A stretch of 64,000 nucleotides of DNA. Source: an uncultured Planctomycetales bacterium (GTDB taxonomy: Bacteria; 4484-113; JAFGCY01). The notes below the pieces were generated by a model that did no database searches, was not told where the DNA came from, and was given only the letters and a program-made list of their open reading frames with translations. Both the position numbers and the translations under genes were made by a program. Within the stretch, counting starts at the first letter, position 1. Every line of letters begins with the position of its first letter. Below are positions 25,459-64,000 of this stretch, piece by piece. The stretch lies in NCBI GenBank assembly GCA_964609245.1, contig CAZSSB010000003.1, positions 55,854 through 119,853 on the forward strand, given 5' to 3'.

Positions 25459-25761
25459 ATGTACACGCTGGAGTTTCTGATCGATCCGCAGGCACAGGCC
25501 AGTCTGGAACTGGTGTGGTGGGCGCTGGCGCTGGGCGCCGCCCTGCTCGTGTTCATCAATATCCAGGTCTACTACGCTAATCCGCGGCGTCGAGATTTGG
25601 AGCGCAGCTGGGCCCAGGCGTTCGAGGCGGCTCAGCTGCAGCGCTACGCCGACAGCGACATCGAGTGGCGGGCCAAAGACCTGAACCTGCATTTCGGCCA
25701 CCAGCTGACGGGCCGGAATACTCTCGACGAGTGGTTCGATTCCAAGATGTCGGTGTTCTGA
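25459..25761 (+). CDS. Small single-TM hypothetical protein, paralog of 25155..25400
   Basis: MYTLEFLID...WWALALGAALLVFINIQVYYANPRRRDL...; shares the IQxYxxxPRR...W...F...RY......WR pattern. Confidence 0.6.
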   Translation: MYTLEFLIDPQAQASLELVWWALALGAALLVFINIQVYYANPRRRDLERSWAQAFEAAQLQRYADSDIEWRAKDLNLHFGHQLTGRNTLDEWFDSKMSVF

Positions 25762-25762
25762 G

Positions 25763-28859: not shown

Positions 28860-28868
28860 TACAACCCC

Positions 28869-31543: not shown

Positions 31544-31547
31544 AAGC

Positions 31548-45566: not shown

Positions 45567-45583
45567 GACGGCTCGGGGGAGCC

Positions 45584-48500
45584 ATGGCGGCGGCGCTGGG
45601 GGCGCTGGTGCTGAATGCTTGCGGGGGCAGCGCCCATGATGCTACGGCGGTGCCGGTCGCGCAACCGACGGCGGGGCCCGTGCGGGTCTCGGCGCAGTGG
45701 CTGCGGCAGCAGCCGGGTCCGCGCCTGGGCGAGTACAGCTTTCACCTGCTGGACTCTGACGGCCGCGCGCTGAGCGACTGGTCGCGCGTGGGTCTGAGCG
45801 TCTCGGCGGGCGGCCAGGTTGGCCATTACGTAGTAGAGGCGGCCGAGCGGCCAACGGACGATATTTACCTCTATGTCACATACCCGGGCGCGGATGTCCA
45901 CGTTGGCGATGCGCGGCTGGCGAGCGGTCGCGGCGGTGAGTATGTCTTTCTCTCCGTGCCGGGCCGGATCCGCGACGTACTGGTGATCGGGATGGCGCGG
46001 ATCGGCGGCCGGCGAGCGGCGGCCCTGAAGCCCGGGCCGCTGGCGCGGATCAGCTTCGCCGCGGGCGGCGAGCAGGTCGTAAGGGCGGCCAGCCGCGTCA
46101 ACGAGGACCCGCGCAGCGCGGCGGTGTTCGGCGCCAGCGGCGGCGGGGACTGGTTGGTCGCCGACATCTGGTGGGAAGAGCGCAACATCGGCGACTACAA
46201 CAACAACGGCCTGGTGGAAGTGGCCGACATCACGCCGATCGGTGTCTACTTCGACCAGGAAGTGGCAGCCGCGGACGACCCGGCGCTGCTGGAAATCGTC
46301 GACGGCACCCTGGACGGGTTCGTCACGATCCACGACATCACGCCGATCGGCCAGAATTTCGACGCGCGTATCGACGGCTTCCGGCTGTACGCCGCCTATA
46401 CAGAAAACCCCGATCCCGAGGACTTCGAGCTGTTTCCATGGGAGGACTACTCAACCTGGCCGCGCCCGGAGCTCTATGACGCCACGGATGAGCTGGCGCG
46501 GCGCAAGCGCCTGCAGTACCGCGGAAACATGATTCCGATTGATGATCCGGCGGGCATCTGGACGGGAGGCAAGCTGAGCCTGCTGGTGCGTGCATTCGCC
46601 GACGATGGCGGCACGATCGAGGAAGGGCCGCCCAGCAACGCGGTCGAGCTGAACTACAGCGGCCTGCCCGTCAATCACGCGCCAATCTGGGTTGAACAGC
46701 CCGGTCTCACCGCAGCCATTGGCACCGGTGAAGGAATCCTGGTGCGTTGGGGGCAGGCCCTCGATCCGGACGGGGACGAGATCGAATACGTACTGCGCTA
46801 CATCGACGGCGGTCAGGCCATCGGCCTGCCGGGCACGGTGGTGCTGGTGATGCCGCCGGAGACGACTGCCGGAGGTCCACCCTACGAGTACTATGTCGAG
46901 GGGCTGACGCGGGGCGAGGAATACACGCTGCTGATGAAAGCCCGTGACGAGCTTGGGCTGGAGAGCAGCAATTCCGCCACCAGCCTGGTGCGCGTGCCGG
47001 CGCTGGGCGTCAGCGCGGATACCTGGCCCTACCACCGCTTCGATCCGGCGCGGACCGGCTGCAATGCGGAGTGCTTGCTTGAGGAACCTCTTTGTGAGGC
47101 GTGGACTGCGCCGCTCGACTGGCCGACCGCCACGGAAGCGCCCAACGAGCCGCTGATCAGCGCTGAAGGCTGGATCGGCGCGCCGACCGGAGATGGCCTG
47201 TTCAGGCGCTATCTGCTCGAGAGCGGCGCGGATCACTCCTTTGAGCATTTCTACACTGTCGATCGCTTTCGCGGTTCTCTCAGCGGTGGGTACATGGCGT
47301 ACGGCGAGCCCTCATCCGGACTGGTAGTTGAACAGCTATACGGCCCGATGTGGCTTTGGCCGGAGGTTGGCGAGCTGACGGGCGGCCCGTTGGTCCTAGG
47401 TGACCTGGTGTTCGCGGCGGGAGGCAGCGCCGTAGTCGGCGCGGAGATCTACTACGGTTCGGAGTGGTTGTTCGAACCCGGCGGGGATTCCCCGTACACA
47501 CTGTCCCCCGCCGCCGACGAGCAGCACCTCTACACCGTCCGCGACGATGGGCGCGTCGACAAGCTGGATCTGCTGACCGGTGACAACGCCGCGACCGGTG
47601 ACCTGGCGGCCATTCCCAGTGGCGACGCTGTTGCGCTGGACTCCGCGAGCGGCCGGCTGTACGTGGCGACCGAGGATGACTGGCTGGTGGAGCTGAGCGC
47701 GGATGACCTGAGCGTGCTCAATCGCTGGCCGGCGGGCGAGGACGACCACTCGATGACCAGCCCCTGCCTGGTGCTGCATAGCGATCCGCCGCTGGCCGTC
47801 GTCGGTCACGGACTCTACGGCATGATCGAAACGCCGGGCTTCCTGCATGCCATCAACCTGCTGACCGGTGATACGGAGTGGACGCGGGCGATCCGCTTTC
47901 CCTTCGTGCCCCAGCAGATCACCGCCGGGCAGTCACGTCTGTTTGTCGTGTCACGCAACGGCGGGCTGTTCGTGCTCGACTTCGCGGGCAACGTGCGCCA
48001 GGAGGTGGACTTGCAGGCGCCGATGCACTCATCCGCGGTGCTGGCCGCGGACCGGCTGGCGCTGGTCAGCACCGACAGCCTGCGCGTCTTCGAGGCGGCG
48101 GCCGACGAACCGCCGGTGTGGGTCGGGACCGAAGGGGTGCGCGAACTGACTACCGGCGACGGCAGTGTCACCGCGCACTGGGATCACGCCGTCGATGACA
48201 ACGGCGAGCCGGTTCACTACGCGCTCTACTATCGGGCGGGCGCTGCTCCCGTCTTCAGCCAGCCGCTGGGCGATACGCAGCTGATCACCGGTATCGAGGA
48301 CAACGGCTTCGGCCACTCATACATGATCGACGGCCTGGACAACGGCACGCGCTACTACGTGGCGGTGCGGGCATATGACGGCCGCTGGGACGATCTGCCC
48401 AACGTCGAGCAGAACACGAACGTGTTGGCCGCCACGCCGCCCTGGCAGCGCGAGCAGCTGGTGCTCGGCGGCGACCTGCCTGCCGGCGAGATTCTGTTTA

Positions 48501-49651
48501 TGCGCGGGGTGCTCGATCCGACCGGTGAGATCAACCTGGTATACAGCGACGCCGATGACGCACAGCTGATGCGCGTCTGGGGCGGTGCGGGCAGCTGGCA
48601 GTGGGAGCAGGTGATCGACGACACCAGCTGGCTGGTCGCGGCCCAGGCCTTCGATCTGGGCTGGAACACGACCGCCGACGCGCTGCTGATCGGGATGGCC
48701 AACACCAACTTCGTCGGGCACTCCGCCCTGCTGCTGCGGCTGCCCTCCGGGGCGTATGACCTGCGCAGCTTTGACGATACCGATCCGGGGCTCAATCCGC
48801 AGGTCTCGCTGGGCTACGGCGCCGAGGCGGCGCTGGCCTATACCGAGAACGCCGGCAGCGGTGTCGAGCGCCCCGTCGACTACTACCTGAAGCGCACGAT
48901 CGCGGGCGTCTGGCAACCGGTGGAGCCGCTGGACCAGACCAATCTCTCCGGCCGCGACCTGGATCTGGTGCTGTCGCCGGCGGACGATGCCTCGCCGTGG
49001 GTCGCCCTGCAGCGCGGCGGCGAGAGCACCCCCAACCGCTACACTCCGCAGGAAGGCGAGTGCGTGTACGCCCGGTGGGACAGCGGCGGATCAACCTGGA
49101 GCTTCGATCTGGTGGACGCCGGCGACAACGCACCGGACAGCGATTGCGGCAAGCGCGTCGTGCAGATGGTTGACGACGACGACCGTCCCCGGCTGGCCTA
49201 TCTCGACCTGAACGCCGATCCGGCGGACCCCAGCGGCCAGCTCAAGTACGCCTGGTACGACGCCGGCGACTGGTACATCGAGATCGTGGATAGCTTCCCG
49301 TTGCAGTTCAACTACGCCTCGGACCAGTTCATCTGGCCGGAGCTTGGTCTGGCGCTCTACGAGCCCGGCGGCGGCCAGCAGGCGCTGATCGCCCAGCTGC
49401 AGGTCACCACGGCCCGGACACTCAGTATGCCGCAGCGGGCGGTCCTGGAGGTCTGGGTGCGGCAGGGCGCCGACGACTGGCGGCGCGAGCAGCTGGCGGA
49501 CGAGGAGTGGATCTTCACCGAGGATCGGGCGCCCTGCGTGCTGCTCGTCACCCCCAACGGCAGCTGGCACGTCCTCTACGCCACCACCCATGACCAGCAG
49601 GTAGTGGACGGCGCCGATGCACTCGTGCACTACTGGCGGCCGGCGGCCTAG
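45584..49651 (+). CDS. Large surface lipoprotein: cohesin-like, dockerin-like, FN3, PQQ-type propeller, FN3, second propeller
   Basis: Lipobox VLNAC; [18 protein letters not shown]...[20 protein letters not shown]; NHAPIW...VRWGQALDPDG and PPVW...AHWDHAVDDNG FN3 units; WPYHRFDPARTG PQQ-like start. Confidence 0.8.
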   Translation: MAAALGALVLNACGGSAHDATAVPVAQPTAGPVRVSAQWLRQQPGPRLGEYSFHLLDSDGRALSDWSRVGLSVSAGGQVGHYVVEAAERPTDDIYLYVTYPGADVHVGDARLASGRGGEYVFLSVPGRIRDVLVIGMARIGGRRAAALKPGPLARISFAAGGEQVVRAASRVNEDPRSAAVFGASGGGDWLVADIWWEERNIGDYNNNGLVEVADITPIGVYFDQEVAAADDPALLEIVDGTLDGFVTIHDITPIGQNFDARIDGFRLYAAYTENPDPEDFELFPWEDYSTWPRPELYDATDELARRKRLQYRGNMIPIDDPAGIWTGGKLSLLVRAFADDGGTIEEGPPSNAVELNYSGLPVNHAPIWVEQPGLTAAIGTGEGILVRWGQALDPDGDEIEYVLRYIDGGQAIGLPGTVVLVMPPETTAGGPPYEYYVEGLTRGEEYTLLMKARDELGLESSNSATSLVRVPALGVSADTWPYHRFDPARTGCNAECLLEEPLCEAWTAPLDWPTATEAPNEPLISAEGWIGAPTGDGLFRRYLLESGADHSFEHFYTVDRFRGSLSGGYMAYGEPSSGLVVEQLYGPMWLWPEVGELTGGPLVLGDLVFAAGGSAVVGAEIYYGSEWLFEPGGDSPYTLSPAADEQHLYTVRDDGRVDKLDLLTGDNAATGDLAAIPSGDAVALDSASGRLYVATEDDWLVELSADDLSVLNRWPAGEDDHSMTSPCLVLHSDPPLAVVGHGLYGMIETPGFLHAINLLTGDTEWTRAIRFPFVPQQITAGQSRLFVVSRNGGLFVLDFAGNVRQEVDLQAPMHSSAVLAADRLALVSTDSLRVFEAAADEPPVWVGTEGVRELTTGDGSVTAHWDHAVDDNGEPVHYALYYRAGAAPVFSQPLGDTQLITGIEDNGFGHSYMIDGLDNGTRYYVAVRAYDGRWDDLPNVEQNTNVLAATPPWQREQLVLGGDLPAGEILFMRGVLDPTGEINLVYSDADDAQLMRVWGGAGSWQWEQVIDDTSWLVAAQAFDLGWNTTADALLIGMANTNFVGHSALLLRLPSGAYDLRSFDDTDPGLNPQVSLGYGAEAALAYTENAGSGVERPVDYYLKRTIAGVWQPVEPLDQTNLSGRDLDLVLSPADDASPWVALQRGGESTPNRYTPQEGECVYARWDSGGSTWSFDLVDAGDNAPDSDCGKRVVQMVDDDDRPRLAYLDLNADPADPSGQLKYAWYDAGDWYIEIVDSFPLQFNYASDQFIWPELGLALYEPGGGQQALIAQLQVTTARTLSMPQRAVLEVWVRQGADDWRREQLADEEWIFTEDRAPCVLLVTPNGSWHVLYATTHDQQVVDGADALVHYWRPAA

Positions 49652-49684
49652 CCTGGTCCGAGCGTCCGCGCGCGGTGCCGCCGG

Positions 49685-51391
49685 CTAGTTGACGTTAACT
49701 ACCACGGCATTGCTGACGCGCCGCTGGTTGTCGTAAAGCGTGACGTTGGCTGTCCGCGGATACTCGCAGCGCACGACCAGTTCCGCCCCGCCGGCGCCGG
49801 TGGTGTCGAGCACGCCGGCGAAGGTGTCGATCGCGTATGTTGCGGTGTCAGGGGTGGGCGTCGCGGTCCAGTTGCACCAACTGGTCAGATCCTGGACAAC
49901 CTCGTTGCCGTTGTCCAGCCCGTCCCAGTCGAAGGTGCCCTCGATCGCGAACTGCACGTCATCGCCGTCGTTGGCGGCGATCGGCCCGCTGCCGCCGCCG
50001 CTGCTGAGCGCCAGGTCCTGGATGCTGAGCAGCACGAAGCCCGCCGTTTGCGTCTTGGTGAAGTTGCCCGGGATCTGGGCGGTGACCTCGATCCTGCCGC
50101 GGTTGACGAAGGTCAGCAGCCCCTTGAGGTCGCTGGGATCGCCGCCCTCGGCGTTGCCGACCTTGGCCAGACCGCCGCCGTCGCTGACGTACCAGACCAG
50201 ATGCTCGCTGTCCTCGTAAGTGTTACCGGGATCCTCGACAATCTCCACGGTGGCGGTCAGCTGCAGTGACTCGGGCGCGAACGGCTCGGCGTTGCCGTCG
50301 ATGTCGTCCACCGACCACTCGCTGAGCAGCACGATGTAGTTGCCATCGCCGTCCGTCGGGAGGCCGGACGGCACGTTGATCGCCAGCACCTCGGTCGGCG
50401 TGAACGTCGGGTTCGCCGCCTCGATCAGCACGCCGTAGTCGCTGGGGTAGGCGCTCAGTGCGCCGTCGCGGTCGTAGGCGTGGACCCAGAAGCGCGTATC
50501 CTCGGCCAGCTCTGTGCTGCCGGTCCAGGTCCAGCGCAGTTCGCCATCGATGGTGGTCGGCGCGGTCGGGAACATCGCGACGCGGTCGAAGCGGACGAGT
50601 TCGGTCAGACTGCCGGCGCTCTCGCCGGTCATGATCGCGTAGCCGCCCAGCGTGACGTCGAGCTGCTGGCTGATGACCGTGATGTCCGAAACACCCACCT
50701 CGCCGTCGCGGTTGTAGTCGGCATCGCGTGCCTGCTTGTCCGCGTCGCCGGTCGCGGCCGGCGTGGCGCCGAACTGCTGGCCGATCTGGGTGTAGTCGCT
50801 GACCGTCACCTGCCCGTCGTTACTGCCGTCGGCGACCAGCCGCTCGACCCAGGTCAACTGCGGGTAATCGTCTTCAGTCAGGTCGCCGCTGAGCGAGGAA
50901 TCGATGTGGTTGTAGACGCCATCCGGACCCCGCAGGACCTGCTTGGTCACCTCGGAGGCGCCGGCGGCGAACCGCAGGCGGCACAGCTCCTGGGTGCCCG
51001 ATACGCCCTCGCGCTCGCCGAAGCGTGGCAGCAGCCAGCCGACCTCGACCACGCCCTGGTCGGGCCGGTCGATGCACAGCACCATCCCGTCCTCCAGCCG
51101 CTCGGCCGCGGTCTCCCCGGCCGCGAAGTGCAGCGCCGCGGGATCGTAGGCGACCCGGGCGTAGAGCACCTTCGCGTTGACGAGCTCGGTCGCCGAGAGG
51201 GTCAGCTCCGTGCTCTCGCCGGTCAGCTCCAGCCCGCCGACGCCGTCCGCGATGCTGTGCTCACGGTCGAGCTGCGCACTCAGACGCGGGGCGTCCAGGG
51301 TCTGGTTCTCGTTCAGCGTGTCGGCGCAGGCCGACAGCGCCAGAGCGGCCAGGCCGCTCACCAGCACGGTAATCGCCAGGTTCTTCAGCAT
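49685..51391 (-). CDS. Surface lipoprotein: cohesin-like + dockerin-like + Ig-like domains
   Basis: Lipobox LSAC; VLYARVAYDP...ELCRLRFAAG cohesin-like segment; ADGSNDGQVTVSD...ADYNRDGEVGVSD duplicated Ca-binding loops. Confidence 0.75.
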   Translation of the reverse strand: MLKNLAITVLVSGLAALALSACADTLNENQTLDAPRLSAQLDREHSIADGVGGLELTGESTELTLSATELVNAKVLYARVAYDPAALHFAAGETAAERLEDGMVLCIDRPDQGVVEVGWLLPRFGEREGVSGTQELCRLRFAAGASEVTKQVLRGPDGVYNHIDSSLSGDLTEDDYPQLTWVERLVADGSNDGQVTVSDYTQIGQQFGATPAATGDADKQARDADYNRDGEVGVSDITVISQQLDVTLGGYAIMTGESAGSLTELVRFDRVAMFPTAPTTIDGELRWTWTGSTELAEDTRFWVHAYDRDGALSAYPSDYGVLIEAANPTFTPTEVLAINVPSGLPTDGDGNYIVLLSEWSVDDIDGNAEPFAPESLQLTATVEIVEDPGNTYEDSEHLVWYVSDGGGLAKVGNAEGGDPSDLKGLLTFVNRGRIEVTAQIPGNFTKTQTAGFVLLSIQDLALSSGGGSGPIAANDGDDVQFAIEGTFDWDGLDNGNEVVQDLTSWCNWTATPTPDTATYAIDTFAGVLDTTGAGGAELVVRCEYPRTANVTLYDNQRRVSNAVVVNVN

Positions 51392-52821: not shown

Positions 52822-53526
52822 TCAGAATCCCACCATGCTCACGCGGCGGCAGTCGTTGCTGCGCGCGATCAGCGCAATCTGGGCGTGGCGGCCCATTGCC
52901 ACCTGCTGAGCCTGGGACTCGGCGGCGCGCCAGGCTGCGACCACCTTGCGCTCCTCGGCTTCGGTCCGGCCCAGCACGGAGTACGCCAGCATCTCGCGCA
53001 CGCTGACGCGGAAGGGCAGCAGCGGCTGCGTGATGGTGTAAGGCGTGCCGTTCAGTTCCGGCACCCGCTGCATCACGTCGCGCAGCCAGTCGTTGGCCTC
53101 GGTGTAGCTGACGCCGATAATCCCCAGCTGCAAGAAGTAGCTATCGTCCGAGCCCTGCCGGTAGTCCACGATCAGGCTGTGACCCCCATGGTCCGCCAGC
53201 GCCTCGGCGTGGTTGGCGAAGACGCCGACCCAGTGCGGATAGGCGGCCGGCACGAAGCTGTCCGGCGCCTGGATGGTGATCAGCTGGCCGTCGTCCCAGC
53301 CGATGACGGGCGCCCCGCTGGCCCAGCCTCCCAGCGCCAGCAGGCCGGTGATGAACGCCAGCACCTTGATCGCAGTGCTCACGCGGCGGCGCCTGGGCCG
53401 GCGCTCGAGGCTGCGCTCCAGCCTGAGGCGGGCGATCACGGGATCGGCCTGGCCGGTCAGGCGGTCGAACACGCTCTGGATCAGCTGTTCGGCGTTGTTA
53501 TCCGGTCTGGTGTTGAACTCACTCAT
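52822..53526 (-). CDS. Putative transmembrane anti-sigma factor
   Basis: Overlaps the ECF sigma stop; ~50 aa cytoplasmic N-terminus, one TM, periplasmic domain. Confidence 0.6.
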   Translation of the reverse strand: MSEFNTRPDNNAEQLIQSVFDRLTGQADPVIARLRLERSLERRPRRRRVSTAIKVLAFITGLLALGGWASGAPVIGWDDGQLITIQAPDSFVPAAYPHWVGVFANHAEALADHGGHSLIVDYRQGSDDSYFLQLGIIGVSYTEANDWLRDVMQRVPELNGTPYTITQPLLPFRVSVREMLAYSVLGRTEAEERKVVAAWRAAESQAQQVAMGRHAQIALIARSNDCRRVSMVGF

Positions 53527-54196
53527 GGTTGGTCACTCCCGGTGCCGGGATGTTAAGAAAGGACAGCGCGCCCTCGGGCAGCATCGCCCTCAGTTTGCGC
53601 CGCGCACGGTAGGCCAGCTGAATCACCGCCCGCTGGCTGATGCGCTGGATGCGCGCCACTTCCTCCGGAGTGAATCCGGCGGGCCCCAGCAGCAGAATCA
53701 CGTCGCGCTCACGCGCGCTGAGCCGTCCCAGCAGCTCCCTGACCAGAGTAAGTTGGTAGCCGAGCTCGGCGGGATCGCCGCTTACGCTCGCTGTGGCTTC
53801 CAGAATACTGTGCGAACTGCCCAGCTCGGCTACCAACTTGAACGGTCGCAACCGCCAGCGGTTGCGAAGGTTCCTGAAGCGGTTCAGGAGGATTGCAAAG
53901 AACCACTCGCGGAAGCGTTCGCGGTTCCGGAGTGTGTCAAACCGCGAGTAGGCTGAAAGCACCGCATCCTGGACCAGGTCCTCGCCGTCCATCAGGCTTC
54001 CACTGATCGACTGCGCATAGGCCAGGGCTCTGGGGTAGACGGGCATCAGCAGGCTGAGAAACTCATCCCGGTGGTTGCTCTCCAGAACTGCGCCGCCAGC
54101 TGTCCTCGAACCTCCATCCTCGGATCGCTGGCCGTGCGCCGGCTTCTCGCCCCGCCGAGTGCCCTTCTTCCCTGCGGATGTGTGCTTATCGCCCAC
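53519..54196 (-). CDS. ECF-type sigma-70 factor
   Basis: DGEDLVQDAVLSAY...FREWFFAILLNRFRN (region 2); LSARERDVILL...FTPEEVA (region 4). Confidence 0.9.
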   Translation of the reverse strand: MGDKHTSAGKKGTRRGEKPAHGQRSEDGGSRTAGGAVLESNHRDEFLSLLMPVYPRALAYAQSISGSLMDGEDLVQDAVLSAYSRFDTLRNRERFREWFFAILLNRFRNLRNRWRLRPFKLVAELGSSHSILEATASVSGDPAELGYQLTLVRELLGRLSARERDVILLLGPAGFTPEEVARIQRISQRAVIQLAYRARRKLRAMLPEGALSFLNIPAPGVTNHE

Positions 54197-54340
54197 TACT
54201 TACGGTGACAATCCTTCAAGTTGGTAGTAACGCCGGGTCACAGTAATTGTAACGAACACTCTGACTGCCGGGCTAAACATCTGTTCCAGTGCCGCGCCGG
54301 ACACAGCTGCCGGTCCTCTGCCAAGAGCTGGCGATGTGCC

Positions 54341-54390
54341 GATAATACGTTATCATTTCAACAGATGGATCTCGCGGGGAGGTGGGCGCG
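54341..54390 (+). repeat. Promoter/RBS block duplicated at 58023-58072
   Basis: GATAATxCGxTATCATTTCAxCAGxTGGAxCTCGCGGGGAGGTGGGCGCG precedes both ATG 54391 and ATG 58073. Confidence 0.85.
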
Positions 54391-57300
54391 ATGCGCGCTT
54401 ACGCTGTGCTGATGACGTTGACCCGCGCAGCCGTGTTGATGCTCGTAATTGCTGGTGCTACTGGTTGCGGAGGCGGTAGGAGTGGTGCGGTGGACATGGC
54501 GGCCGAACAGCTGGCCGCTGCGCCGCTGAAAGAGAGTCCCGGGCTGGATGATGCGACAGAAGGCATGCGTGCCGAGTCACTGGCTGAAGCGCTTCAGCAG
54601 GTGGAGTCCGCGCAGGCTCCGGCGGGCGTTGATCCGGCGCTGTACGCCGAGCTGCAGGCCGAGCTGGTCCGGGTGATCAGAGAGGCGGCGGAGAAGGGCG
54701 CCTCGATTCCGCCCTCGGGCGAGAAGAACGAGGTGACGGACCTGCTGCTGATGGGCGATGACGGCGAGGGCTACACGCTGGAGTGGAGCTACTGCAACGT
54801 CGGGGATTACAACCTCGACGGCCTGGTGGGGGTCAGCGATCTGACGCCGGTGGGGATGTACTTCGAGTGCGCCACGGGCGATCCGGACTGGCCCGACGGC
54901 CGGATGGCGGACGGCAACGAGGATGGCATGGTGACGGTGGCGGACATCACGCCGATCGGGCAGAACTACGATGCGTTCATCGCCGGCTTCAACATCTACG
55001 GAGGCAGCTCGGTCACCGGGCCCTGGACGCTGGTCGATGCGCTGGACCGGCCGGCGCCGCCGGAGGATGGCTGGTTTCTGGTCAGCTACGACCTCGGTGC
55101 GGGGGGCCACGATGTTTACCGCGTGGTGCCCTACGACGGTGACGGCGTAGAGGGCCAGGGCAGCACGGCCAGCGCGATCTGCGCCAACGGCGCGCAGGTG
55201 ACCTTTGGCGACTACTTCGAGGATGCCAGCGCCACCATCGGTGCCGCTGGCGGTGAGTTGCACGGCCTGGCCGGCTCGCCGCTGGAAGGGGTGGAGGTGC
55301 ACTTCCCGGAGGGCGCCCTGCCGGAGGACACGCTGGTCACGCTGGGCTACAACGACGGCTCGATCACGCCGGTCGAGGGCGAGTTCCACGGCCCGCTGCT
55401 GTCACTTACGGCGGGCGACCTGACCTCGTTTGAGGAGCCGGTGGAGATCGTGATGCCGTTCGACGGCGATGAGGAGACCGTGCCCGTGCCGTTCTGCGTC
55501 TACGAGGATGGCAGCCTGGGACTGATGCAGCTGGTGGACGTGGACTACGAAGCGGACACGATGACGCTGATGACCATGCATCCGACCTCACGCGATGCAC
55601 ACGCTACATCTGATGTCTCGCCCGTGGACGATGCTTTTCTGGGCGCGTTAATTGGCGCTATCTACGAGCGCTTCGAGAGCGCAAATGTAGTCGTACCGCA
55701 CGTGACATCGTTCAGGCCGGAGCGGGATGGATTCTCTTTCAGTGAGAATGCCAGCAGCACAACGGCAAAGGGCATGTGCGCCTTTGCTCTTTGGTACTGG
55801 ACTCACCATCGCAATGACGGCCGGTTTTACGGTCGGTTCTCCGAGTACAGCCAGGAACCGCCCGCGGGCGGTGATAACGGATTCGTGCCTAAGACAGTTG
55901 AAGAGATAATCGCTTCGCGGGCCACGATATCAGTGGTGCAGCAATGGGACAAGTACGAGGCCAACTGCGCCGCAGAGCATGATGCTGGTCCCACTGCCAA
56001 TTGTGCGATCGCTCGTTGTGCGATACTGAACACGCGACATCCCGTCTGGACACAGATTACTCTCCTTGGGGAGGATGTGTACGGGCAGCATTGCCTGATA
56101 TACGGCTTCGATGACAGCCACTACTTCTTCTATCTGCCTGACAGTCCTGGCGAAGAGAGGTGGTGCTACTCCTACCGTGCGACCCCATGGTATGTTGCAG
56201 GTCCTGACTCCCTTGCCATGACTGAGTCCTTCGAGAACATCCTCACTGACGCTGAGCACAACTTCGACTACGGCTACGGCAGAGCGGTGATCAATATCGA
56301 TTCACACTACGAGGGTGAGGTAGTGAACCACGACAAGGCAACTCTCGCCGGCGTGGTCGAAAGCGGCGACTTGCTGGTTGACAAGCTGATCATCATCAAC
56401 GAGAGCATGGGACACCAGATGTACAACCTGGTGCTGGATGAAACCGGTGTGTTCTCGCAGGAAATCCAATTGGGTGTCGGCACAAACAACCTCGACTTCA
56501 AGTGCTGGGGGAAAGCTGAGGACAGCCAGAGGGTGCCGATACCGTGGGTGCTTGACATCCGCGAGGATGAAGATGTGTACAAGCGCCTTTACCATGGAAT
56601 CAAGCTAGAGTGCATGATCAACCCGATTGAGATCACGATCATTAACTACTTCGACGAGGAGGAGGTAACGGACGAGAAGGTCTTCCTTGAGGGCCAGCTT
56701 GATGAGGGAGCGTATGATGTGACACGCCTGCTGGCTTTTAGCTTCTCCGAGACTAGGATTCCCCTGCCCGGTCGCCTGGTAACAATTGAACCGGACAACA
56801 GCTTCACTCTGGGCGTACCGTTGGACCCCGGTGAGAATGAGATCAAGTTCCAGACGTCGGCGCAGCTTGACACAGGCAAAACCGTGATTGTGGAAAACAA
56901 CTACCAAAACGAGCCGTTCACCATCATCCGTACGGTCGCGCCAGCCACGCTCACGATCACCTCGCACACCAGCGGCGATACGGTGCAGGACCGCAGCGTT
57001 CTGTTGAAAGGAACCTACAGCGAAGGCGGCGCGCCGCTGGACAGGCTGGCGGTACTGGTCAACTACGAGGATGAGCACAGTGTGGACCTGGACGGTAGCG
57101 GGGGATTCGAGATCAGCATCCCGCTGTGCTTCGGCGACAACTACTTGCTGTTCAGGCTGCTCAGCGAGAACAGTGAAGGCCAGCTGATCGAAGTGCCCAG
57201 CAACATGAAGGATGTGCTCTTCACATTGGATGCCAACTTCGAGCGCTACGTTATCTGGGCGGAGCTGACCTGGCCGTTTGTCGACGAATACATGATCTAC

Positions 57301-57744
57301 AACCCGGATACGCTTAACGAGCCTGATGGTAAGAGCGATCACAACTTCGATCTGATGGTGTACGAGCCAGGCGGACGTACCTATGGGCCGGGGGGGAGCA
57401 ACGACCTGAAGGGCTTTGTCGGCCAGGCCGGCACGTATCCCAATTATCACCCGAAGTACTTCATTCGTGATGATGACGGTGTTGAGTATGGTTCAGAGTA
57501 CCGCTTCCGCGTGTACTACCAGTGGGCCGCGTACATCTCCTACTACCCGAGCTCACCCGGTACGGTTGAGTTGCCGATGGACTTCACGCTGACGGTTACC
57601 GTCAACGAAGGCCAACCCCATGAGTACACAGAGGTGTTCACAGGAACGCTGACTTATCCGTTGGGAACCAGTGAGGACTGGGTGATCGACGGAACTGGGC
57701 CGCAGATCTCGGAGTACTTCTCGGTGACGCCGACTCTGCAGTAG
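54391..57744 (+). CDS. Surface lipoprotein: dockerin-in-FN3, ZU5-like, degenerate papain-like domain, Ig repeats, YfaP-like C-terminus
   Basis: GGAGG RBS; lipobox ATGC; [16 protein letters not shown]...ADGNEDGMVTVADITP; VHFPEGALPEDTLVTL; AELTW...FDLMVYEPGG. Confidence 0.8.
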   Translation: MRAYAVLMTLTRAAVLMLVIAGATGCGGGRSGAVDMAAEQLAAAPLKESPGLDDATEGMRAESLAEALQQVESAQAPAGVDPALYAELQAELVRVIREAAEKGASIPPSGEKNEVTDLLLMGDDGEGYTLEWSYCNVGDYNLDGLVGVSDLTPVGMYFECATGDPDWPDGRMADGNEDGMVTVADITPIGQNYDAFIAGFNIYGGSSVTGPWTLVDALDRPAPPEDGWFLVSYDLGAGGHDVYRVVPYDGDGVEGQGSTASAICANGAQVTFGDYFEDASATIGAAGGELHGLAGSPLEGVEVHFPEGALPEDTLVTLGYNDGSITPVEGEFHGPLLSLTAGDLTSFEEPVEIVMPFDGDEETVPVPFCVYEDGSLGLMQLVDVDYEADTMTLMTMHPTSRDAHATSDVSPVDDAFLGALIGAIYERFESANVVVPHVTSFRPERDGFSFSENASSTTAKGMCAFALWYWTHHRNDGRFYGRFSEYSQEPPAGGDNGFVPKTVEEIIASRATISVVQQWDKYEANCAAEHDAGPTANCAIARCAILNTRHPVWTQITLLGEDVYGQHCLIYGFDDSHYFFYLPDSPGEERWCYSYRATPWYVAGPDSLAMTESFENILTDAEHNFDYGYGRAVINIDSHYEGEVVNHDKATLAGVVESGDLLVDKLIIINESMGHQMYNLVLDETGVFSQEIQLGVGTNNLDFKCWGKAEDSQRVPIPWVLDIREDEDVYKRLYHGIKLECMINPIEITIINYFDEEEVTDEKVFLEGQLDEGAYDVTRLLAFSFSETRIPLPGRLVTIEPDNSFTLGVPLDPGENEIKFQTSAQLDTGKTVIVENNYQNEPFTIIRTVAPATLTITSHTSGDTVQDRSVLLKGTYSEGGAPLDRLAVLVNYEDEHSVDLDGSGGFEISIPLCFGDNYLLFRLLSENSEGQLIEVPSNMKDVLFTLDANFERYVIWAELTWPFVDEYMIYNPDTLNEPDGKSDHNFDLMVYEPGGRTYGPGGSNDLKGFVGQAGTYPNYHPKYFIRDDDGVEYGSEYRFRVYYQWAAYISYYPSSPGTVELPMDFTLTVTVNEGQPHEYTEVFTGTLTYPLGTSEDWVIDGTGPQISEYFSVTPTLQ

Positions 57745-57816
57745 GTTCTCTTCTTCACGTAAAGCGGGGCTGGTGCGGGACAACAGCTTAGCGGCTCAGT
57801 TCGCGGGGCCGACTGC

Positions 57817-58010
57817 CTAGTCCGTCTTGCCCCGGACCGCGCGGCCCAGCACCTGGCGGGCGATGACCATGCGCTGAATCTCGCTGGTGCCCTCGCCGAT
57901 CGTGCACAGCTTGGCGTCGCGCCACATCCGCTCCACCTCGTACTCCCGCGTATAGCCGTAGCCGTCGTGCAGCTGCACCGCCAGTTCGGTGATGCGCATC
58001 GCCACCTCGC
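57817..58010 (-). pseudogene. Displaced 3' fragment (~195 bp) of the acyl-CoA dehydrogenase gene
   Basis: Encodes [63 protein letters not shown], nearly identical to the C-terminus of the gene ending at 63186. Confidence 0.92.
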
Positions 58011-58072
58011 CGGCGAAACATAGATAATGCGCTATCATTTCAGCAGGTGGAACTCGCGGGGAGGTGGGCGCG

Positions 58073-61000
58073 ATGCGCGCTTACGCTGGGCTGATGACGT
58101 TAACCCGCGCAGCCGTGTTAATGCTCGTGATTGCTGGTGCTACTGGTTGCGGAGGTGGCAGGAGTGGTGCGGTGGACATGACGGCTGAGCCGATGGCTGC
58201 TGCGCCGCTGATAGAGAGTCTTGGGCAGGATGATGCAACGCCCGGGATGCGTGCCGAATCGCTGGCTGAAGCCATCGCGCAGGTGGAGACCGCACCGGTG
58301 CCGGCGGAAGTCGACCCGGCGCTGTTCGCCGAGCTCCAGGCCGAGCTTGTCCGCGTGATCAGGGAAGCGGCGGAGAAGGGCGCCTCGATTCCGCCGTCGG
58401 GTGAGCACAATCGTGTCACCGACCTGGCGCTGGTCGAGTCCGCCGATGGCTGGGAGCTGAGCTGGAGCTACTTGAACACCGGCGACTACAACCTCGACGG
58501 TCTGGTGGGGGTCAGTGATCTGACGCCGGTGGGGGTGCACTTCGATGCGGAGCAGGGCGATCCTGCCTGGCCCCAGGCACAGTGCGCCGATGGCAACCAT
58601 GACGGCATGATTACGGTCGCGGACATCACGCCGATCGGCCAGAACTTCGGCGCCTTTGTGGCCGGCTACAACGTCTATGGATCGGACGAAGCGGATGGCC
58701 CCTGGACGGAAATCGGGTACAGCCAGCGCCCCGCCGCCTTTACCGCGGGCTCGCTGGCCTGCAGCTTTGAACTGGCCGCACGCGAGCATGAATACTACCG
58801 GGTCGAGGCGGTCGACGCGCAGGGCTCGGCCGGCGATCCCAGCGATGAGGTGCTTGCTCCTGGCGAACCGGCGCAGGTCAGCCTGGGGACGGACACAATC
58901 CTTACAAGCGAGGTGGTTCCCGACGGCGGCTCGCTGCTGCATGGTCCGGCAGGCTCGCCGCTGGAGGGAATGGAGTTCTACTTCCCCTCGGGTGTGATCG
59001 GCGAGAACATGGAGGTCGGGCTGGGCTACAACGACGGCTCGATCGCCCCCGTCGACGGAGTGTTCCAGCCACCGATCATCGTGATTGACTGCGGCGATGT
59101 CGACGTCCTGCCGATGCCGCTGGAAATCCGCCTGCCGTTCCCCGCCGATCAGCCGGTTGTGCCCGTGCTGTATGACATCGGAGAAGACGGCATTCTGCTG
59201 CCGATCGCTTATCAGGAGATCAACTACGAAACGGGCATGGCTGTCTACCGGACGATGCACGCCTCGCGAAAGGCCCTGATACTGGGCCGCCTGCATTTTG
59301 CCTCCACTGCCGATATCGGCCAGTGGGACACGGGGTTCCGCCCGCGCAAGGACGGCTTCTTCATTGTCAACAAGGGCAGCATGGTCTATCCGAAGGGCGA
59401 GTGCATGGGGATGACGGCGTTCAGCATGTGGTACTACCGCCTGAAGCACTACTGGAATCACGGCTTTTTGTATCTCAGCTTCCGGCAGCTCCTGGAGCCA
59501 GGCCCTGAGATCGTACAGGACGTGATTGCGACGCGCGCCCACACCTCGATCCACACCCAGTACAATTCGCTGTACCGCCCGCTGGCGCACACCCGCTTCC
59601 AGCTGCCGGCACCATACCGCTTCGCGATGATCCGCACCGCGCTGCTCAACAGCGGCGGGCCAATCACGATGACGGCGCAGGATGAGGCGGTAACCTGCGG
59701 CCATTCAATGCTGGTCTGTCGCATGAGTACGTACAGCCAGTTCCCGAACGCAGTGATTCTGGGTGTCTACGATCCCAACAAGCCCGGCAGGCTGTCAGAG
59801 GTTGGCTACTACTGCGACGAGCCGGTTAACTGGGATCTGGGCAAATTCGCGCCATATGCCAGCGGCGTGGTGTATGACGAGACCGAAATCGTGTTCGCCG
59901 ACTTCATACTGGAGGGGGAAGCATCGCTGCGCTTCAGGGAACACTTCGCATCGATCCTCGAGGATGCCCTGGATGATCCGCCATTCGGCGGCAGCAACCA
60001 GGTAACGATTCGGATCAGCGAACCAGCGGACGGATCGGCGCTGGATGTTCGGGATGTGGTTATCCGCGGCCAGGCGCTGAGTGGCGAAGTCCTGGTCGAT
60101 AGCCTGGGAATCTCAGCCATACCTGAGACGCGGTTTCACGCCAATACCGCGTTTGATCAACTGCCAAACCAGAGCAAGCTGGTCATGCCGGACGCCGAGG
60201 GCTATTTCGCGGCAGCGCTGACACTGCTGCCGGGGCCGAACACGATTGGGTTCGCGCCGTTCGGCTATGACGCGGATGAGAACCACCGGCTGCTGCCGGT
60301 GCGCATGCATCCCGACGATCTGGAGTTGGACGAAGGTTTCCCGGTGAACAATGGCTACGATCTTGAGGCTCCCTTCGGCCTCGTGGAGATCGGTATCAAC
60401 GGACTGAGTTCCGGACAGCAGGTTCCGCAAGCTCCGCTTGCGCTTTCCGGTACCTTGACATGTGGGGATACGCCAGCCGACAGGCTGGAAATGCTGAACG
60501 GCGCGGACAGGTACGAGGCAATCCTGACACAGACTGGTGATCTCACTGCCAGTTTCGCACTGAGCGGAGTGAACATCGGGTCCGGAGTGAATAACCTGCT
60601 GTTCAAAGCCTGGGCTGAGGATGTCTGCCTCTACGAATACTACGAGATGCCGACGACGTACAGCGAGCACCCCTTCGTGCTCATCGGAGCGGAAGCACCG
60701 CCTCCCGGCCAGGTGACGATCGAGGTGGAGTGGGGCAATGGTGCGGATTGCGGCATCGTGCTTTCCTGTCCGTGGATGGATGGCGCGTATCACTACGTCA
60801 GCAAACAGAACCCGGGCAGCATTGGCAGCGTTCCGTACGCGCTGTTCGAGGATTCGAGCGTCTATGGCGCTGGCGATGTGGTGTGGCCCGGCAACGGGCA
60901 CTACACGATCACTATCGCGCATCTGGAGCCCGGTGGCTACGCGCTTAAGGAAGATGTCTGGCACACCACGCGCAAGACCACTTTGGTGAAGGTCAGCAAA

Positions 61001-61141
61001 GGCGGCAGCCTGGAGCACACGATCATCCCGACCAGCGATCCCAAGCCCCCCGACGGCGAGTACAGCAACGACTGGGTGGTGTTGAGGATCGACGGAGAAA
61101 CGGGTGAGATCACGGTGGTAAACGAGTATCAGACATTCTGA
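58073..61141 (+). CDS. Surface lipoprotein, paralog of 54391..57744, with a putative papain-like Cys-His-Asp/Asn domain
   Basis: Near-identical signal peptide and N-terminus; dockerin-like pair; ZU5-like segment; [10 protein letters not shown]...GECMGM...CGHSML...YDPNKPG. Confidence 0.8.
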
Positions 61142-61337
61142 GGGGGGCTGCTGATGCAGCCGGCCTTCTGATCGGCTGGCGGGATGGATCAACTGCCGGC
61201 AGGAAATCGATCCGGCGGTAGAGGAATCGAGCCTGCCAGGCACAAGGCGGACTGCACCGTACTGCCAGCGTCCCTGCCTGGAGATCCCAGCCGTGCAGCC
61301 ACCGGGGCTTGTACAGCTCCAGTGCAAGCGCTACACG

Positions 61338-61388
61338 TCAGTCCGTTTTGCCCTTGACCGCGCGGCCCGGCACCTGGCGGGCGATCAC
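61338..61388 (-). pseudogene. Second, shorter displaced 3' fragment of the acyl-CoA dehydrogenase gene
   Basis: Encodes VIARQVPGRAVKGKTD*; core ACCGCGCGGCCCxGCACCTGGCGGGCGATxAC is shared with 57817 and 63186. Confidence 0.85.
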
Positions 61389-61491
61389 GGTGCTGTGTTT
61401 CGATCCGACCGCGAGGGCATTACGATGGTACAATATCAGCGACGACGCTGTAGGGGCGTTATCGGTTGGCTGTGCAGCCGTGGAGGTTGTG

Positions 61492-63168
61492 ATGCGTAAC
61501 GGTGCACGGCGAGAGAGACCCTCTCCCATTGCTTTAGTGGCGGTGGCTTGCGCCATCACGGCGCTCTGCGCGCTGGGCTGCGAGGCGAACAGCGTTGAGC
61601 CGCGCCTGCGCGATGACCAGCTTGATCCGTCCCTGGAGCGGCCACTGCCTGCCGCTGATTTCGGGCTGGCGTCGCCGACGGAGCTGGCGCGGGAGACGGC
61701 GGCGGCAACCGGTGGCTGCTTCCGCTACGGCGCGGCCTACAACGCCGCACTGCCCACACGCCATGCCAGCATTTCCGGGGCAAGCCTGTGGCTCGACCCG
61801 CCAGCGTGGTCCACGGGACTGGATGAAGACCCAACCGAGCCGGCATTCGCAATCTACAGCTTCGACGTCAGCGATTTCGCGGGTGCAGCCCGGTTCACAG
61901 TCAGGTCCCGCAGCGGCGTGCCCTACGCCGGGCTGGCCAACTACAAGCGTGACAGCTGGGACTGGTTCGCGGTTCCCCCCGATGGCGATGTGGCGATCGA
62001 CAGCTTTGCCTCATACGCGTCCGACACGGGCGTGTGCTATCTGGCGGTTGTCTCGATCAACGATGCTCAAGACGTCCACCGCACCGACGTCGTCGACTGG
62101 GTGCGGATCGGCGCCGATCCCTGGGAGTATTCCCCGCTGGCAGGCAGCGAATCAGGCAAGTACTACCAGTCACTGGCGCTGGACTCACAGGACCGGTCAT
62201 GGGTGGCGTGGTCAACGGCCGAACCCGAGCACGCCAGCGGGGTGGCGTTCTGCGGCGATGCGGGCCTGGTTCACGAAGCGATCAGCGACCACTACGCCCT
62301 CGGCCAGTCGCTGCGCCTGGACACCGATGACAGGCCACAGCTGTGCTACGTGATCCTGGCAGAGACGCAGTACGAGATCCGCTATGCCTGCCGCGAGCAA
62401 GGCGAGTGGCTTGACGAGCGGATCGCCGGGGTAGCCTACTCGCACACCACAAGCCAGGGCGCGCCGGAGCCCACCGCGCTGGACTACCTGCCCGCCGTGG
62501 ACTTGTCCCTCGATTCGGGTGGCCGGCCGCGGATTGCCTTGGTGGATACCGGCGACTCGGCGGTACGTTTCTGGTGGCACGACGGGTCGGACTGGCGCGC
62601 CGAGCTGGTGGACGACGACGCGATCGAGAAGCACCGCAGCGACATCAGCCTGGCACTTGATGTCGCTGGCAATCCGCGGCTTGTGTACAGCGGTGGCCAC
62701 CCACTCGAGCTTCGCTATGCCGTAAACGACGGCCCGGGCTGGGTTGTCGAGGCCGTGCTGCCTGAGGAAGGAGGATATCGGCATGTGTCGCTGGTGCTGG
62801 ATGAGACGGACAGGCCCATTCTGGCCTGCGGTTATGGATCGCTGGTGACAATCCTTCGCCGGAGCCAGGAGTGGGAGAGCACGACTCGCCCTGAAACGTA
62901 CGCTGTGCAGTACCTCGATCTGGCCTGCGCCGGCACTGCGCCTGCGCAGCTCTGTTACGGTCCGCTGGTCGACTACTGGGACCTGCAGTACGGGAGCCTT
63001 AACGGTGATACCTGGCAAATGGAAACCGTGTACCCGGCAGACCACCTCAGCTATTACCGGGAGACTCCGCCCGACGCTCTCGCGCTGGACTCCACCGGTG
63101 CACCGGTGATCCTGCTCCTGGAGGATTGCATAGAGGGGCGCGCCTGGTTCCTGATAACCCGCAGGTGA
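61492..63168 (+). CDS. Surface lipoprotein with beta-propeller-type repeats
   Basis: GGAGG RBS, ATG 61492; lipobox ALGC; repeats SLALDSQDRSWVAW, SLRLDTDDRPQLCY, DLSLDSGGRPRIAL, SLALDVAGNPRLVY, SLVLDETDRPILAC. Confidence 0.8.
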   Translation: MRNGARRERPSPIALVAVACAITALCALGCEANSVEPRLRDDQLDPSLERPLPAADFGLASPTELARETAAATGGCFRYGAAYNAALPTRHASISGASLWLDPPAWSTGLDEDPTEPAFAIYSFDVSDFAGAARFTVRSRSGVPYAGLANYKRDSWDWFAVPPDGDVAIDSFASYASDTGVCYLAVVSINDAQDVHRTDVVDWVRIGADPWEYSPLAGSESGKYYQSLALDSQDRSWVAWSTAEPEHASGVAFCGDAGLVHEAISDHYALGQSLRLDTDDRPQLCYVILAETQYEIRYACREQGEWLDERIAGVAYSHTTSQGAPEPTALDYLPAVDLSLDSGGRPRIALVDTGDSAVRFWWHDGSDWRAELVDDDAIEKHRSDISLALDVAGNPRLVYSGGHPLELRYAVNDGPGWVVEAVLPEEGGYRHVSLVLDETDRPILACGYGSLVTILRRSQEWESTTRPETYAVQYLDLACAGTAPAQLCYGPLVDYWDLQYGSLNGDTWQMETVYPADHLSYYRETPPDALALDSTGAPVILLLEDCIEGRAWFLITRR

Positions 63169-63185
63169 TTCGGCTTTCTGGACGG

Positions 63186-64000
63186 CTAGTCTACCTTGCC
63201 TCTAACCGCGCGGCCCAGCACCTGGCGGGCGATCACCATCCGCTGGATCTCGCTGGTGCCCTCGCCGATGGTGCACAGCTTGGCGTCGCGCCACATCCGC
63301 TCCACCTCGTACTCGCGGGTATAGCCATAGCCGCCGTGCAGCTGGACCGCCAGCTCCGTGATGCGCATCGCCACCTCGCTGGCATACAGCTTGGCCATCG
63401 CGGCCTCCTTGGTGATGTGCATCCCCTGGTCCTTCATCCACGCCGCGCGGTAGACCATCAGCCGCGCCGCCTCCAGCTCGGTGGCCATGTTGGCGATGAA
63501 GTGCTGGATCGGCTCGTGCTGGGCCAGCAGCTTGTCAAAGGTCTTGCGCTCCCTGACGTAGGCCACGGCGCGCTCGTAGGCGCCCTGGGCCAGACCCAGC
63601 GCCATCGCGCCGATACCGATCCGCCCGCCCTCCAGTGTCTGCATGAAGGCGCCGAAACCGGTGTTCTCCTCGCCGAGCAGGTTCTCAACCGGCACGCGGA
63701 CGTTGTCGAGGAAGATCTGCGACGTGCTGGAGCCGCGCAGGCCCAGCTTGTCCTCGACCTTGGGCACGCTGACGCCCTCGCTCTGCATGTCGATGATCAG
63801 CGCGCTGATGCCGTGGCTGCGGCGTGCCGAGGGATCGGTCTTGACGGTGGCGACCATCGTCCGGGCCTCGCGGCCGTTGGTGATCCACTGCTTGGCGCCA
63901 TTGACCACGTAGTGGTCACCCTCGCGGATCGCAGTGGTGCGGCAATTGCCGGCGTCGCTGCCCGCCTCGGGCTCGCTGAGGCCGAAGCAGCCGATATGCT
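63186..64000 (-). CDS. Acyl-CoA dehydrogenase (5' part beyond window end)
   Basis: [64 protein letters not shown]. Confidence 0.96.

Follow-up and report, generated by a model that had tools for sequence, protein, structure and literature searches.

Truncated acyl-CoA dehydrogenase gene ends between the lipoprotein genes of an uncultured Planctomycetales bacterium: a probable footprint of recombination between strains

Organization of the locus

The stretch of 64,000 nucleotides (nt) of contig CAZSSB010000003.1 that was analyzed for the current report (the "window") comes from an uncultured Planctomycetales bacterium. Its right-hand 10 kb carry, in order, a minus-strand gene for an extracytoplasmic function (ECF) sigma factor, three plus-strand genes for large predicted lipoproteins, each with a signal peptide of that type (lipoproteins 1, 2 and 3) and, convergent to these on the minus strand, a gene for an acyl-CoA dehydrogenase (ACAD). 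Behind lipoprotein 3 stands the intact ACAD gene, and behind each of lipoproteins 1 and 2 stands a truncated, likewise convergent ACAD 3' end, which we refer to as remnants 1 and 2. An initial annotation, made from the letters of the sequence, had recognized these copies at very nearly the positions that we find (57817-58014 and 61338-61388) and had read the locus as a cassette-like hotspot for the insertion of integrative elements. The analysis described below confirms the copies and points to a different origin for them, in which related strains would have contributed the additional lipoprotein genes by ordinary recombination. The features of the locus, in window coordinates, are the following:

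52822-53526, minus strand: 234-amino-acid (aa) protein, candidate anti-sigma factor (role by position only), overlapping the sigma-factor gene by 8 nt; in the conserved left flank
53519-54196, minus strand: ECF-type sigma-70 factor (Pfam Sigma70_r2, 1.8e-8; Sigma70_r4_2, 1e-6); gene callers place its start at 54046 (175 aa)
54341-54381, plus strand: lipoprotein 1 upstream region, 36 of 41 nt the same as upstream of lipoprotein 2, with a GGAGG ribosome-binding site
54382-57744, plus strand: lipoprotein 1, 1120 aa from a GTG (ATG at 54391), with lipobox Cys29, a dockerin-like Ca-binding pair and then predicted beta-sandwich domains
57745-57816, intergenic: spacer of 72 nt from the lipoprotein 1 stop codon to remnant 1, unrelated to the two other spacers
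57817-58014, minus strand: remnant 1, the 3'-terminal 66 codons and stop of an ACAD allele; it ends in VRGKTD and its reading frame is intact
58010-58022, junction at which remnant 1 meets the region upstream of lipoprotein 2, read directly, its ancestral partner sequences deduced
58023-58063, plus strand: lipoprotein 2 upstream region, homologous to 54341-54381
58064-61141, plus strand: lipoprotein 2, of 1025 aa, related to lipoprotein 1 as a paralogue or an alternative allele; gene callers place its start at a later GTG, and exact look-ups of the protein from either start codon matched nothing
61142-61337, intergenic: spacer of ~196 nt from the lipoprotein 2 stop codon to remnant 2, with a palindrome at 61179-61216 and no similarity to any fetched sequence
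61338-61388, minus strand: remnant 2, the 3'-terminal 16 codons and stop (TGA) of a third ACAD allele; it ends in VKGKTD and has an L>P change
61389-61491, plus strand: lipoprotein 3 upstream region, whose join to remnant 2 is the second junction, one that has no partner sequence by which to read it
61492-63168, plus strand: lipoprotein 3, 558 aa, not related to the other two lipoproteins
63186-64000 and on to ~64373 beyond the window, minus strand: intact ACAD, 395 aa (Pfam Acyl-CoA_dh_1, 3e-55), stop codon at 63186-63188

The ACAD gene exceeds the window and is complete (395 aa) on the 137.8-kb source contig, an ENA metagenome sequence. Self-comparison of the window revealed no further repeats apart from the paralogy of lipoproteins 1 and 2 and an internal repeat of an rnf gene; the intergenic spacers, when compared with all fetched sequences, contained no additional ACAD remnants; and there are no tRNA genes in the window. 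The sigma-factor gene is divergent from lipoprotein 1, and the gene for the 234-aa protein, which has no family match in Pfam or NCBIfam searches, is called beside it on every contig.

The three ACAD gene ends

Remnant 1 aligns without gaps to positions 63186-63383 of the intact (resident) ACAD gene, and 18 of the 198 nt are mismatched (91% identity; BLAST E value within the window 1e-74). Remnant 2, at ~51 nt, differs from remnant 1 at 7 positions and from the intact gene at 10, and its BLAST matches extend over 49 nt at 90% identity (E value 5e-11) and 41 nt at 90% (2e-8). The similarity starts exactly at the stop codon in all three copies (TAG, TGA and TAG), and the sequences past this codon are unrelated among all four of the known ACAD downstream flanks. 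By direct reading, both remnants end in KTD (VRGKTD in remnant 1, VKGKTD in remnant 2) and the resident gene ends in KVD (VRGKVD), just as the initial annotation had it. The two protein differences that it listed between remnant 1 and the resident gene, G>D (at codon -50) and V>T, are likewise present, but the list was incomplete, as F and G also occupy two junction-adjacent codons of the remnant. Remnant 2 is proportionally richer in private changes than remnant 1, among them the L>P replacement and the altered stop codon.

The last 64 codons of remnant 1 were compared with the resident ACAD, with two further orthologues and with the ACAD gene of a contig from run SRR24270824 (L126), the nearest ACAD to be found elsewhere; across the whole gene the identity is 89.6% in nt and 95% in aa. 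The L126 gene is intact and, like both remnants, ends in KTD. Against the resident gene, remnant 1 shows 13.8 synonymous differences (Sd) and 4.2 non-synonymous ones (Nd), which correspond to a synonymous divergence (dS) of 0.38 and a ratio of non-synonymous to synonymous divergence (dN/dS) of 0.08; against L126, dS is 0.28 and dN/dS is 0.05. Non-synonymous differences make up 4 of the 18 in remnant 1, as against 61% expected for a copy that has drifted neutrally since a duplication in place (P=0.001). The rejection of neutral decay and the dN/dS values of 0.05-0.08 together indicate that remnant 1 is the end of a functional allele, as had been proposed for the long copy from the start.

Over its 198 nt, remnant 1 is 92.9% identical to L126 as compared with 89.9% to the resident gene, and over the last 54 nt these values are 96% and 87%, respectively. 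The L126 contig is just 1240 bp long, and the 11 nt of downstream flank that it includes are unlike the flank of remnant 1; the genome, metagenome and protein collections yielded no further close relative. A search for mosaicism between the resident gene and L126 located no crossover point, since their divergence is uniform (~86-93% identity) in all twelve 99-nt windows of the comparison. As judged from the codon and identity comparisons, the three ACAD ends derive from three different alleles that were once functional.

Evidence bearing on an integrative element

The presence of a regenerated gene with displaced ends behind it raises the question of site-specific integration, in which a tyrosine or serine recombinase, itself encoded elsewhere, would have inserted small units made up of a lipoprotein gene plus a surrogate 3' end for ACAD, and every insertion would have displaced the prior end of the gene. 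PMC4383910 describes such an outcome for the islands, tandem ones included, that tyrosine integrases insert at the 3' ends of tRNA or protein genes, where a regenerated target and fragments in direct orientation mark the unit boundaries. The ACAD locus shares with these islands an intact target gene of 395 codons and displaced remnants on the same strand downstream of it. The last codons of the resident ACAD include three that end in A or T (GTT, AGA and GTA) in a gene whose third-position GC content (GC3) is 0.93, and so resemble a foreign surrogate end; moreover, a stretch of ~29 nt is common, in near-exact form, to all three copies.

Several features of the locus nonetheless speak against integration of this kind. 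The displaced ends are unequal in length (198 versus ~51 nt), which implies that there was no fixed crossover point. The core of ~32 bp that the initial annotation had proposed corresponds to a 29-nt exact block (57836-57864), and this block is not special: the exact blocks within the 198-nt match measure 29, 23, 44, 10 and 22 nt with mismatches between them, so that none is privileged; the 29-nt block is shorter than the 44-nt one, stops at a mismatch on either side and is itself interrupted by a mismatch in remnant 2. On both strands, folding of all three ACAD ends as DNA yielded no hairpin (z-scores of -0.49 to +0.99) and no structure like an attC site in the shared stretch. The "island" would have to be a 5.2-kb segment with nothing but two lipoprotein genes in it, as the only features between remnant 1 and ACAD are lipoprotein 2, remnant 2 and lipoprotein 3. 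The junction of remnant 1 appears to bear microhomology to the upstream region of a lipoprotein gene (see below), and no sampled contig exhibits presence/absence polymorphism of a unit.

The statement in the initial annotation that the window has no integrase agrees with a domain scan and can be extended. Integrase, transposase and other recombinase domains were detected neither in the genes up to 10 kb past ACAD nor in those open reading frames (ORFs) of the window that were scanned. The scan took in all but a few short ORFs and the rnf genes, and its targets included chaperones, citrate synthase, Rnf, MoxR and further surface proteins. Neither the core sequence nor the lipoprotein family left a trace in a collection of viral contigs. 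The unequal lengths, the lack of a core or hairpin, the apparent microhomology and the failure to find a recombinase all count as evidence against an integrative element or cassette system, and we regard site-specific integration as quite improbable and the mechanism favored by the initial annotation as not supported. Still more improbable is a variant in which a recombinase elsewhere in the genome would use the ACAD 3' end as its attachment site and capture single lipoprotein genes in the manner of an integron, the remnants having become unequal through trimming.

The lipoprotein genes and the junctions

The three lipoprotein genes that had been described as an array are all present, but they do not belong to one family. 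Lipoproteins 1 and 2 are paralogues, with 39% aa identity overall (E value 4e-164), and lipoprotein 3 is unrelated to them. The similarity of lipoproteins 1 and 2 is very unevenly distributed: it amounts to 95% in aa and 94% in nt sequence over codons 1-40, where dS is 0.17, falls off through dS values of 0.2-0.75 up to codon 200, and ends beyond that codon in saturation of the synonymous sites (dS >1.5 or not computable), with bodies that are 32-50% identical at the nt level. Their upstream homology begins at GATAAT..TATCAT (an inverted GATAA/TTATC), near sites that resemble promoters by consensus match only, CTGCCA-17-GATAAT at 54318-54346 for lipoprotein 1 and TCGCCA-18-GATAAT at 57999-58028 for lipoprotein 2. 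The -35 hexamer of the second of these sites falls inside remnant 1.

Base composition varies along the same genes. The GC content is 0.55-0.56 in the body of lipoprotein 1 (55500-57500), where the drop covers the 3' two-thirds of the gene, and 0.60-0.61 in lipoprotein 2 (59000-61000), as compared with 0.65-0.70 in the neighboring genes and lipoprotein 3; the 5' ends of lipoproteins 1 and 2 are normal in this respect. An anciently diverged body that lies between well-conserved stretches, namely the promoter with the signal-peptide end to one side and an ACAD end to the other, each of them ~6-12% diverged, is as one would expect of alternative alleles of one variable locus.

Where remnant 1 meets the region upstream of lipoprotein 2, GCCGGCGA matches GCTGGC in ACAD and GCTGGCGA equally far upstream of lipoprotein 1; it stands between ACAD ...CTCGCTGGCATAC and the lipoprotein-upstream ...GAGCTGGCGATGT. 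In sequence, this join looks like one made at a short microhomology. Both of the junctions at the locus connect DNA segments that are not homologous to each other.

These observations also bear on the possibility that a unit composed of a lipoprotein gene and an ACAD 3' end was duplicated in tandem, once or twice, and that the copies diverged in place with no contribution of foreign DNA. The end-to-start (b-a) junction expected of such a duplication does exist, in that the end of the ACAD fragment at 58014 abuts the start of the upstream homology at 58023, with a period of 3682 nt, and the paralogous lipoproteins 1 and 2 share their promoter region. However, divergence is unequal across the unit, and the saturated bodies of lipoproteins 1 and 2 beside a remnant that is 91% identical to its partner imply that no recent tandem duplication took place. 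Further, the nearly complete restriction of the remnant 1 differences to synonymous sites would be impossible for a pseudogene copy, remnant 1 resembles the L126 gene, from another strain, more than the resident one, and remnant 2 cannot have come from duplication of the same unit, given that lipoprotein 3 is unrelated. Plain tandem duplication, which the initial annotation had kept as an alternative, thus does not fit; we consider it rather unlikely, and as a sole cause it is effectively refuted. A mixed version could be envisaged, in which duplication came first and one copy was then replaced by a foreign allele through flank homology.

It is reasonable to infer that lipoproteins 1-3 are surface proteins, and nothing more than this can be taken from their sequences. 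The lipobox cysteine (C29) is invariant in the lipoprotein 1/2 family. A dockerin-like pair of calcium-binding repeats in lipoproteins 1 and 2 is suggested by a weak PDB match to a dockerin, and a related match to Pfam Dockerin_1 occurs in the neighboring gene at 49685-51391. The long region of these two proteins was modeled by AlphaFold (mean pLDDT 57) as strings of beta-sandwich domains, for which the fold matches were just generic strings of Ig/FN3-like domains, multi-Ig adhesins and macroglobulins with TM values below 0.25. Searches of NCBIfam and of PDB sequences gave no match that would point to a function, and their N-terminal module is found in many proteins with other C-terminal domains. 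A Cys-containing motif (KGxC...WY) and a His motif (GxH..YG) are conserved in the family, in an alpha+beta region at aa ~460-580; they recall the core of a papain-like peptidase, a resemblance unconfirmed by Pfam, NCBIfam, a PDB sequence search and the low-confidence model. Lipoprotein 3 has repeated blade-like motifs and distant relatives with a BNR_4 propeller (PF15892); a homologue search with it returned nothing above 30% identity outside of its own population.

Occurrence of the locus in metagenome assemblies

The same order, ACAD-lipoprotein 3-remnant 2-lipoprotein 2-remnant 1-lipoprotein 1-sigma factor, occurs in JGI and ENA contigs that are filed under ten sample accessions. Several of the accessions seem to be repeat assemblies of a sample already included, and about six or more metagenome samples are represented. 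The contigs are at least 99.9% identical to the window, with 1-5 substitutions over 8-16 kb, and within the sampled population the locus varies in one respect only, a pair of deletions by which lipoprotein 1 is disrupted in a single sample. The contig of that sample (L133, JGI 3300029267) has deletions at ~55104-55189 and 55421-55460 (135 nt in total) and a 1-nt indel, such that lipoprotein 1 is called as three ORFs of 752, 76 and 206 aa; the rest of its locus is identical. Lipoprotein 1 may be dispensable or decaying in part of the population.

The window originates from a metagenome assembly, and some contigs of other samples stop inside the locus. This leads one to ask if an assembler might have concatenated strain variants of a single locus. 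Such an artefact is hardly credible, as the order and junctions recur in JGI and ENA assemblies that differ by 1-5 substitutions and are hence not identical copies, the longest exact block between ACAD copies (44 nt) is far below the assembler k-mer of 141, and the non-homologous joins at both junctions would each need reads that span them.

Two contigs (L137 and L138), which are probably two assemblies of one sample, both stop in the spacer that separates lipoprotein 2 from remnant 2, at ~61277-61282 and no more than 5 nt apart. Their ends could reflect a co-existing haplotype that differs leftward of this point or merely low coverage. On the other side of ACAD, and divergent from it, lies a gene for an 829-aa protein with no family match (L001, 20279-22768). 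In L137 this gene has 44 clustered substitutions (equivalent to 65410-66022; L131, 8352-8964), as compared with just 1 in the ACAD-lipoprotein 3 segment, and in L130 it is split by a 62-nt indel. The cluster has the look of a patch introduced by recombination, and the gene would be a second variable one that flanks ACAD.

Relatives of the locus

The gene downstream of ACAD is a different one in each relative examined. A scan of a genome collection, anchored on ACAD, retrieved one relative above 55% identity, Zod_Metabat.1143 (JAFGCY01), in which gene order is not conserved, and a metagenome scan retrieved five relatives with ACAD proteins at 82-92% aa identity on contigs of 1.8-3.8 kb, where the downstream genes are unrelated to the lipoproteins. 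Two of the relatives (L072 and L076; 91-92% aa) have a gene for a 229-aa membrane protein downstream of ACAD, another (L075; 88%) has no recognizable gene there, and a fourth (L071; 84%) has the rnf operon, which in the genome of the window is 31 kb away. In the Zodletone metagenome-assembled genome (L013; 82%), ACAD is followed by small genes and then by a dockerin-type lipoprotein and a homologue of lipoprotein 3 (33% aa), which is convergent to ACAD at a distance of 4 kb downstream. The ACAD downstream side is rearranged in every lineage seen, and these lineages are too distant to provide intermediate states. The description of the locus as a "hotspot" is to this extent unproven, as the comparison across genomes yielded identical copies within the sampled population and no relative with an intermediate state.

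The rnf operon lies at 25644-31900 in the window, on the same strand as ACAD, and at 5143-10887 in L071, where it is directly convergent to ACAD. The difference in placement implies a large rearrangement, one breakpoint of which lies at the 3' end of ACAD.

The lipoprotein 1/2 family also forms a tandem array in another genome (L129, 2525-16810), which has no gene remnants between its members; it consists of four proteins of 866-1114 aa, the family membership of some being deduced, beside a pair of genes for an ECF sigma factor and a putative anti-sigma factor. Additional large putative surface proteins with PKD, Kelch, FN3 and dockerin-like domains are encoded at 305-6100 and 45539-51391 of the window, and arrays of such proteins linked to ECF factors may be a theme of the lineage. 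The window has a GC content of 65% and carries a gene for a Kdo (3-deoxy-D-manno-octulosonate) transferase, which suggests a diderm envelope.

A possible history of the array

We consider it moderately probable that the array was left behind by additive recombination among diverged strains of a single lineage and is not the product of a mobile element. The ancestral arrangement would have been a single, highly variable lipoprotein gene between the ECF sigma-factor gene and the convergent ACAD, with a conserved promoter and first ~120 nt and a hypervariable body. DNA of other strains, consisting of a different lipoprotein allele and part of the adjoining ACAD, would have entered this arrangement at least twice, in each case with one end established by a homologous crossover in a conserved flank and the other by an illegitimate join at a short microhomology. 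In this way the incoming allele would have been added beside the resident gene instead of replacing it, leaving a truncated ACAD end, of either donor or recipient, between the lipoprotein genes. The length of each remnant (198 nt, then ~51 nt) would have been set by the point at which the illegitimate join happened to fall. We infer both this combination of one homologous with one illegitimate exchange and the existence of donor haplotypes that carried a single unit.

Repeated acquisition of units, each a lipoprotein gene with an ACAD end, had been part of the initial interpretation of the locus. It agrees with the separate histories of the units (dS of 0.17 versus >1.5), in which divergence of the lipoprotein bodies long preceded that of the ACAD alleles, whereas the role of ACAD as the anchor of these events is unproven, and the sigma-factor side could have served equally well. 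If ACAD was the anchor, the newest unit would be the one that adjoins it (lipoprotein 3) and remnant 1 would be the oldest of the displaced ends. If the anchor was on the sigma-factor side, lipoprotein 3 and ACAD would be the native pair, and lipoprotein 1 with remnant 1 would be the newest addition. We lean slightly toward the second of these alternatives on account of three weak indications, namely the seemingly more advanced decay of remnant 2, the rise in GC content from lipoprotein 1 (0.55) through lipoprotein 2 (0.60) to lipoprotein 3 (0.66), and the homologue of lipoprotein 3 near ACAD in L013.

A process with many of the postulated features is known as homology-facilitated illegitimate recombination, in which foreign DNA enters the chromosome beside a single stretch of homology, its far end becomes attached at a few bases of GC-rich microhomology, and no enzyme encoded by a mobile element is involved. 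It was reportedly observed during natural transformation by de Vries and Wackernagel and by Prudhomme and colleagues, both in 2002.

Several considerations weigh against the history outlined above. Homology-facilitated illegitimate recombination in its classical form usually deletes or replaces recipient DNA and leaves no duplicated anchor, and a Campbell-type single crossover of a circularized fragment, or an unequal exchange, would fit the locus equally well. The selection statistics for remnant 1 rest on just 64 codons, and the microhomology is a match of 5-8 nt to present-day sequences at the one of the two junctions that can be read. No single-unit donor haplotype (sigma factor-lipoprotein 1-ACAD or sigma factor-lipoprotein 2-ACAD) was found in the genome, metagenome or protein collections, and the homologues of lipoproteins 1 and 2 in other genomes (P0006, P0004 and P0008) are not near any ACAD. 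Finally, all of the sampled copies of the locus belong to the same 99.9% strain, so that at no point was the acquisition of a unit seen as a polymorphism.

Comparison with known systems

In form, the ACAD-lipoprotein array is closest to the rhs and cdiA loci, whose arrays are built through recombination within the conserved part of the gene on arrival of an end from another strain, as outlined in PMC5727410 (citing Jackson 2009 and Koskiniemi 2014) and PMC3150448. In these arrays of displaced C-termini, a full-length gene is followed by truncated 3' ends on the same strand, each with a companion gene, much as it is here. The displaced ends of rhs and cdiA are themselves the variable cargo (toxin domains with their immunity genes), whereas the displaced ends at the locus examined here are bystander pieces of a conserved enzyme and the cargo is the convergent lipoprotein gene. 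Pfam and NCBIfam searches found no toxin or immunity features at the locus, where the companions are lipoproteins of 558-1120 aa with no family assignment.

The locus differs from the integrase islands discussed above in that no integrase, fixed crossover or identity core was found, its units are single genes and its readable junction looks like one of microhomology. Integron arrays also consist of single-gene units in the same orientation, each followed by a recurring short sequence, but the recurring sequence of the ACAD locus is a coding fragment that lacks the imperfect palindrome, the flanks are the ECF sigma-factor gene and ACAD, with no integrase domain found and no attI, and the units, at 2-3.7 kb, contain genes that each have a promoter-like region of their own.

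Exchange of alternative contents between conserved flanks, moved by flank homology and independent of mobility genes, is described for the minimal mobile elements of Neisseria and for capsule and O-antigen loci (PMC3787668). Exchange of the Neisseria type results in replacement and leaves one cassette per strain, whereas at the ACAD locus alternative alleles appear stacked in one chromosome with remnants of the flank between them. The experimental cases of homology-facilitated illegitimate recombination (the term is used in PMC6382021) are likewise different in their outcome, which is usually deletion or replacement beside the anchor; here it is additive, and a duplicated piece of the flanking gene is left behind. 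In sum, the mechanism that we propose resembles both homology-facilitated illegitimate recombination and flank-mediated exchange, with an additive outcome.

Implications

Ordinary recombination, and not a mobile element, is the most likely agent by which extra lipoprotein genes from related strains were spliced into this chromosome. The locus reveals no new machinery and opens no long-standing question; it is an evolutionary scar and not a new system. It does illustrate that a regenerated gene with a displaced end is by itself no signature of an element borne by an integrase, and that automated island finders keyed on displaced gene fragments could mis-call loci of this type. If the history proposed here is true, the array would be a clean natural example, in an uncultivated lineage, of growth of a surface-protein repertoire through the stacking of alleles from sister strains, and the fragments of a housekeeping gene that lie between these alleles would be dated receipts of each import.

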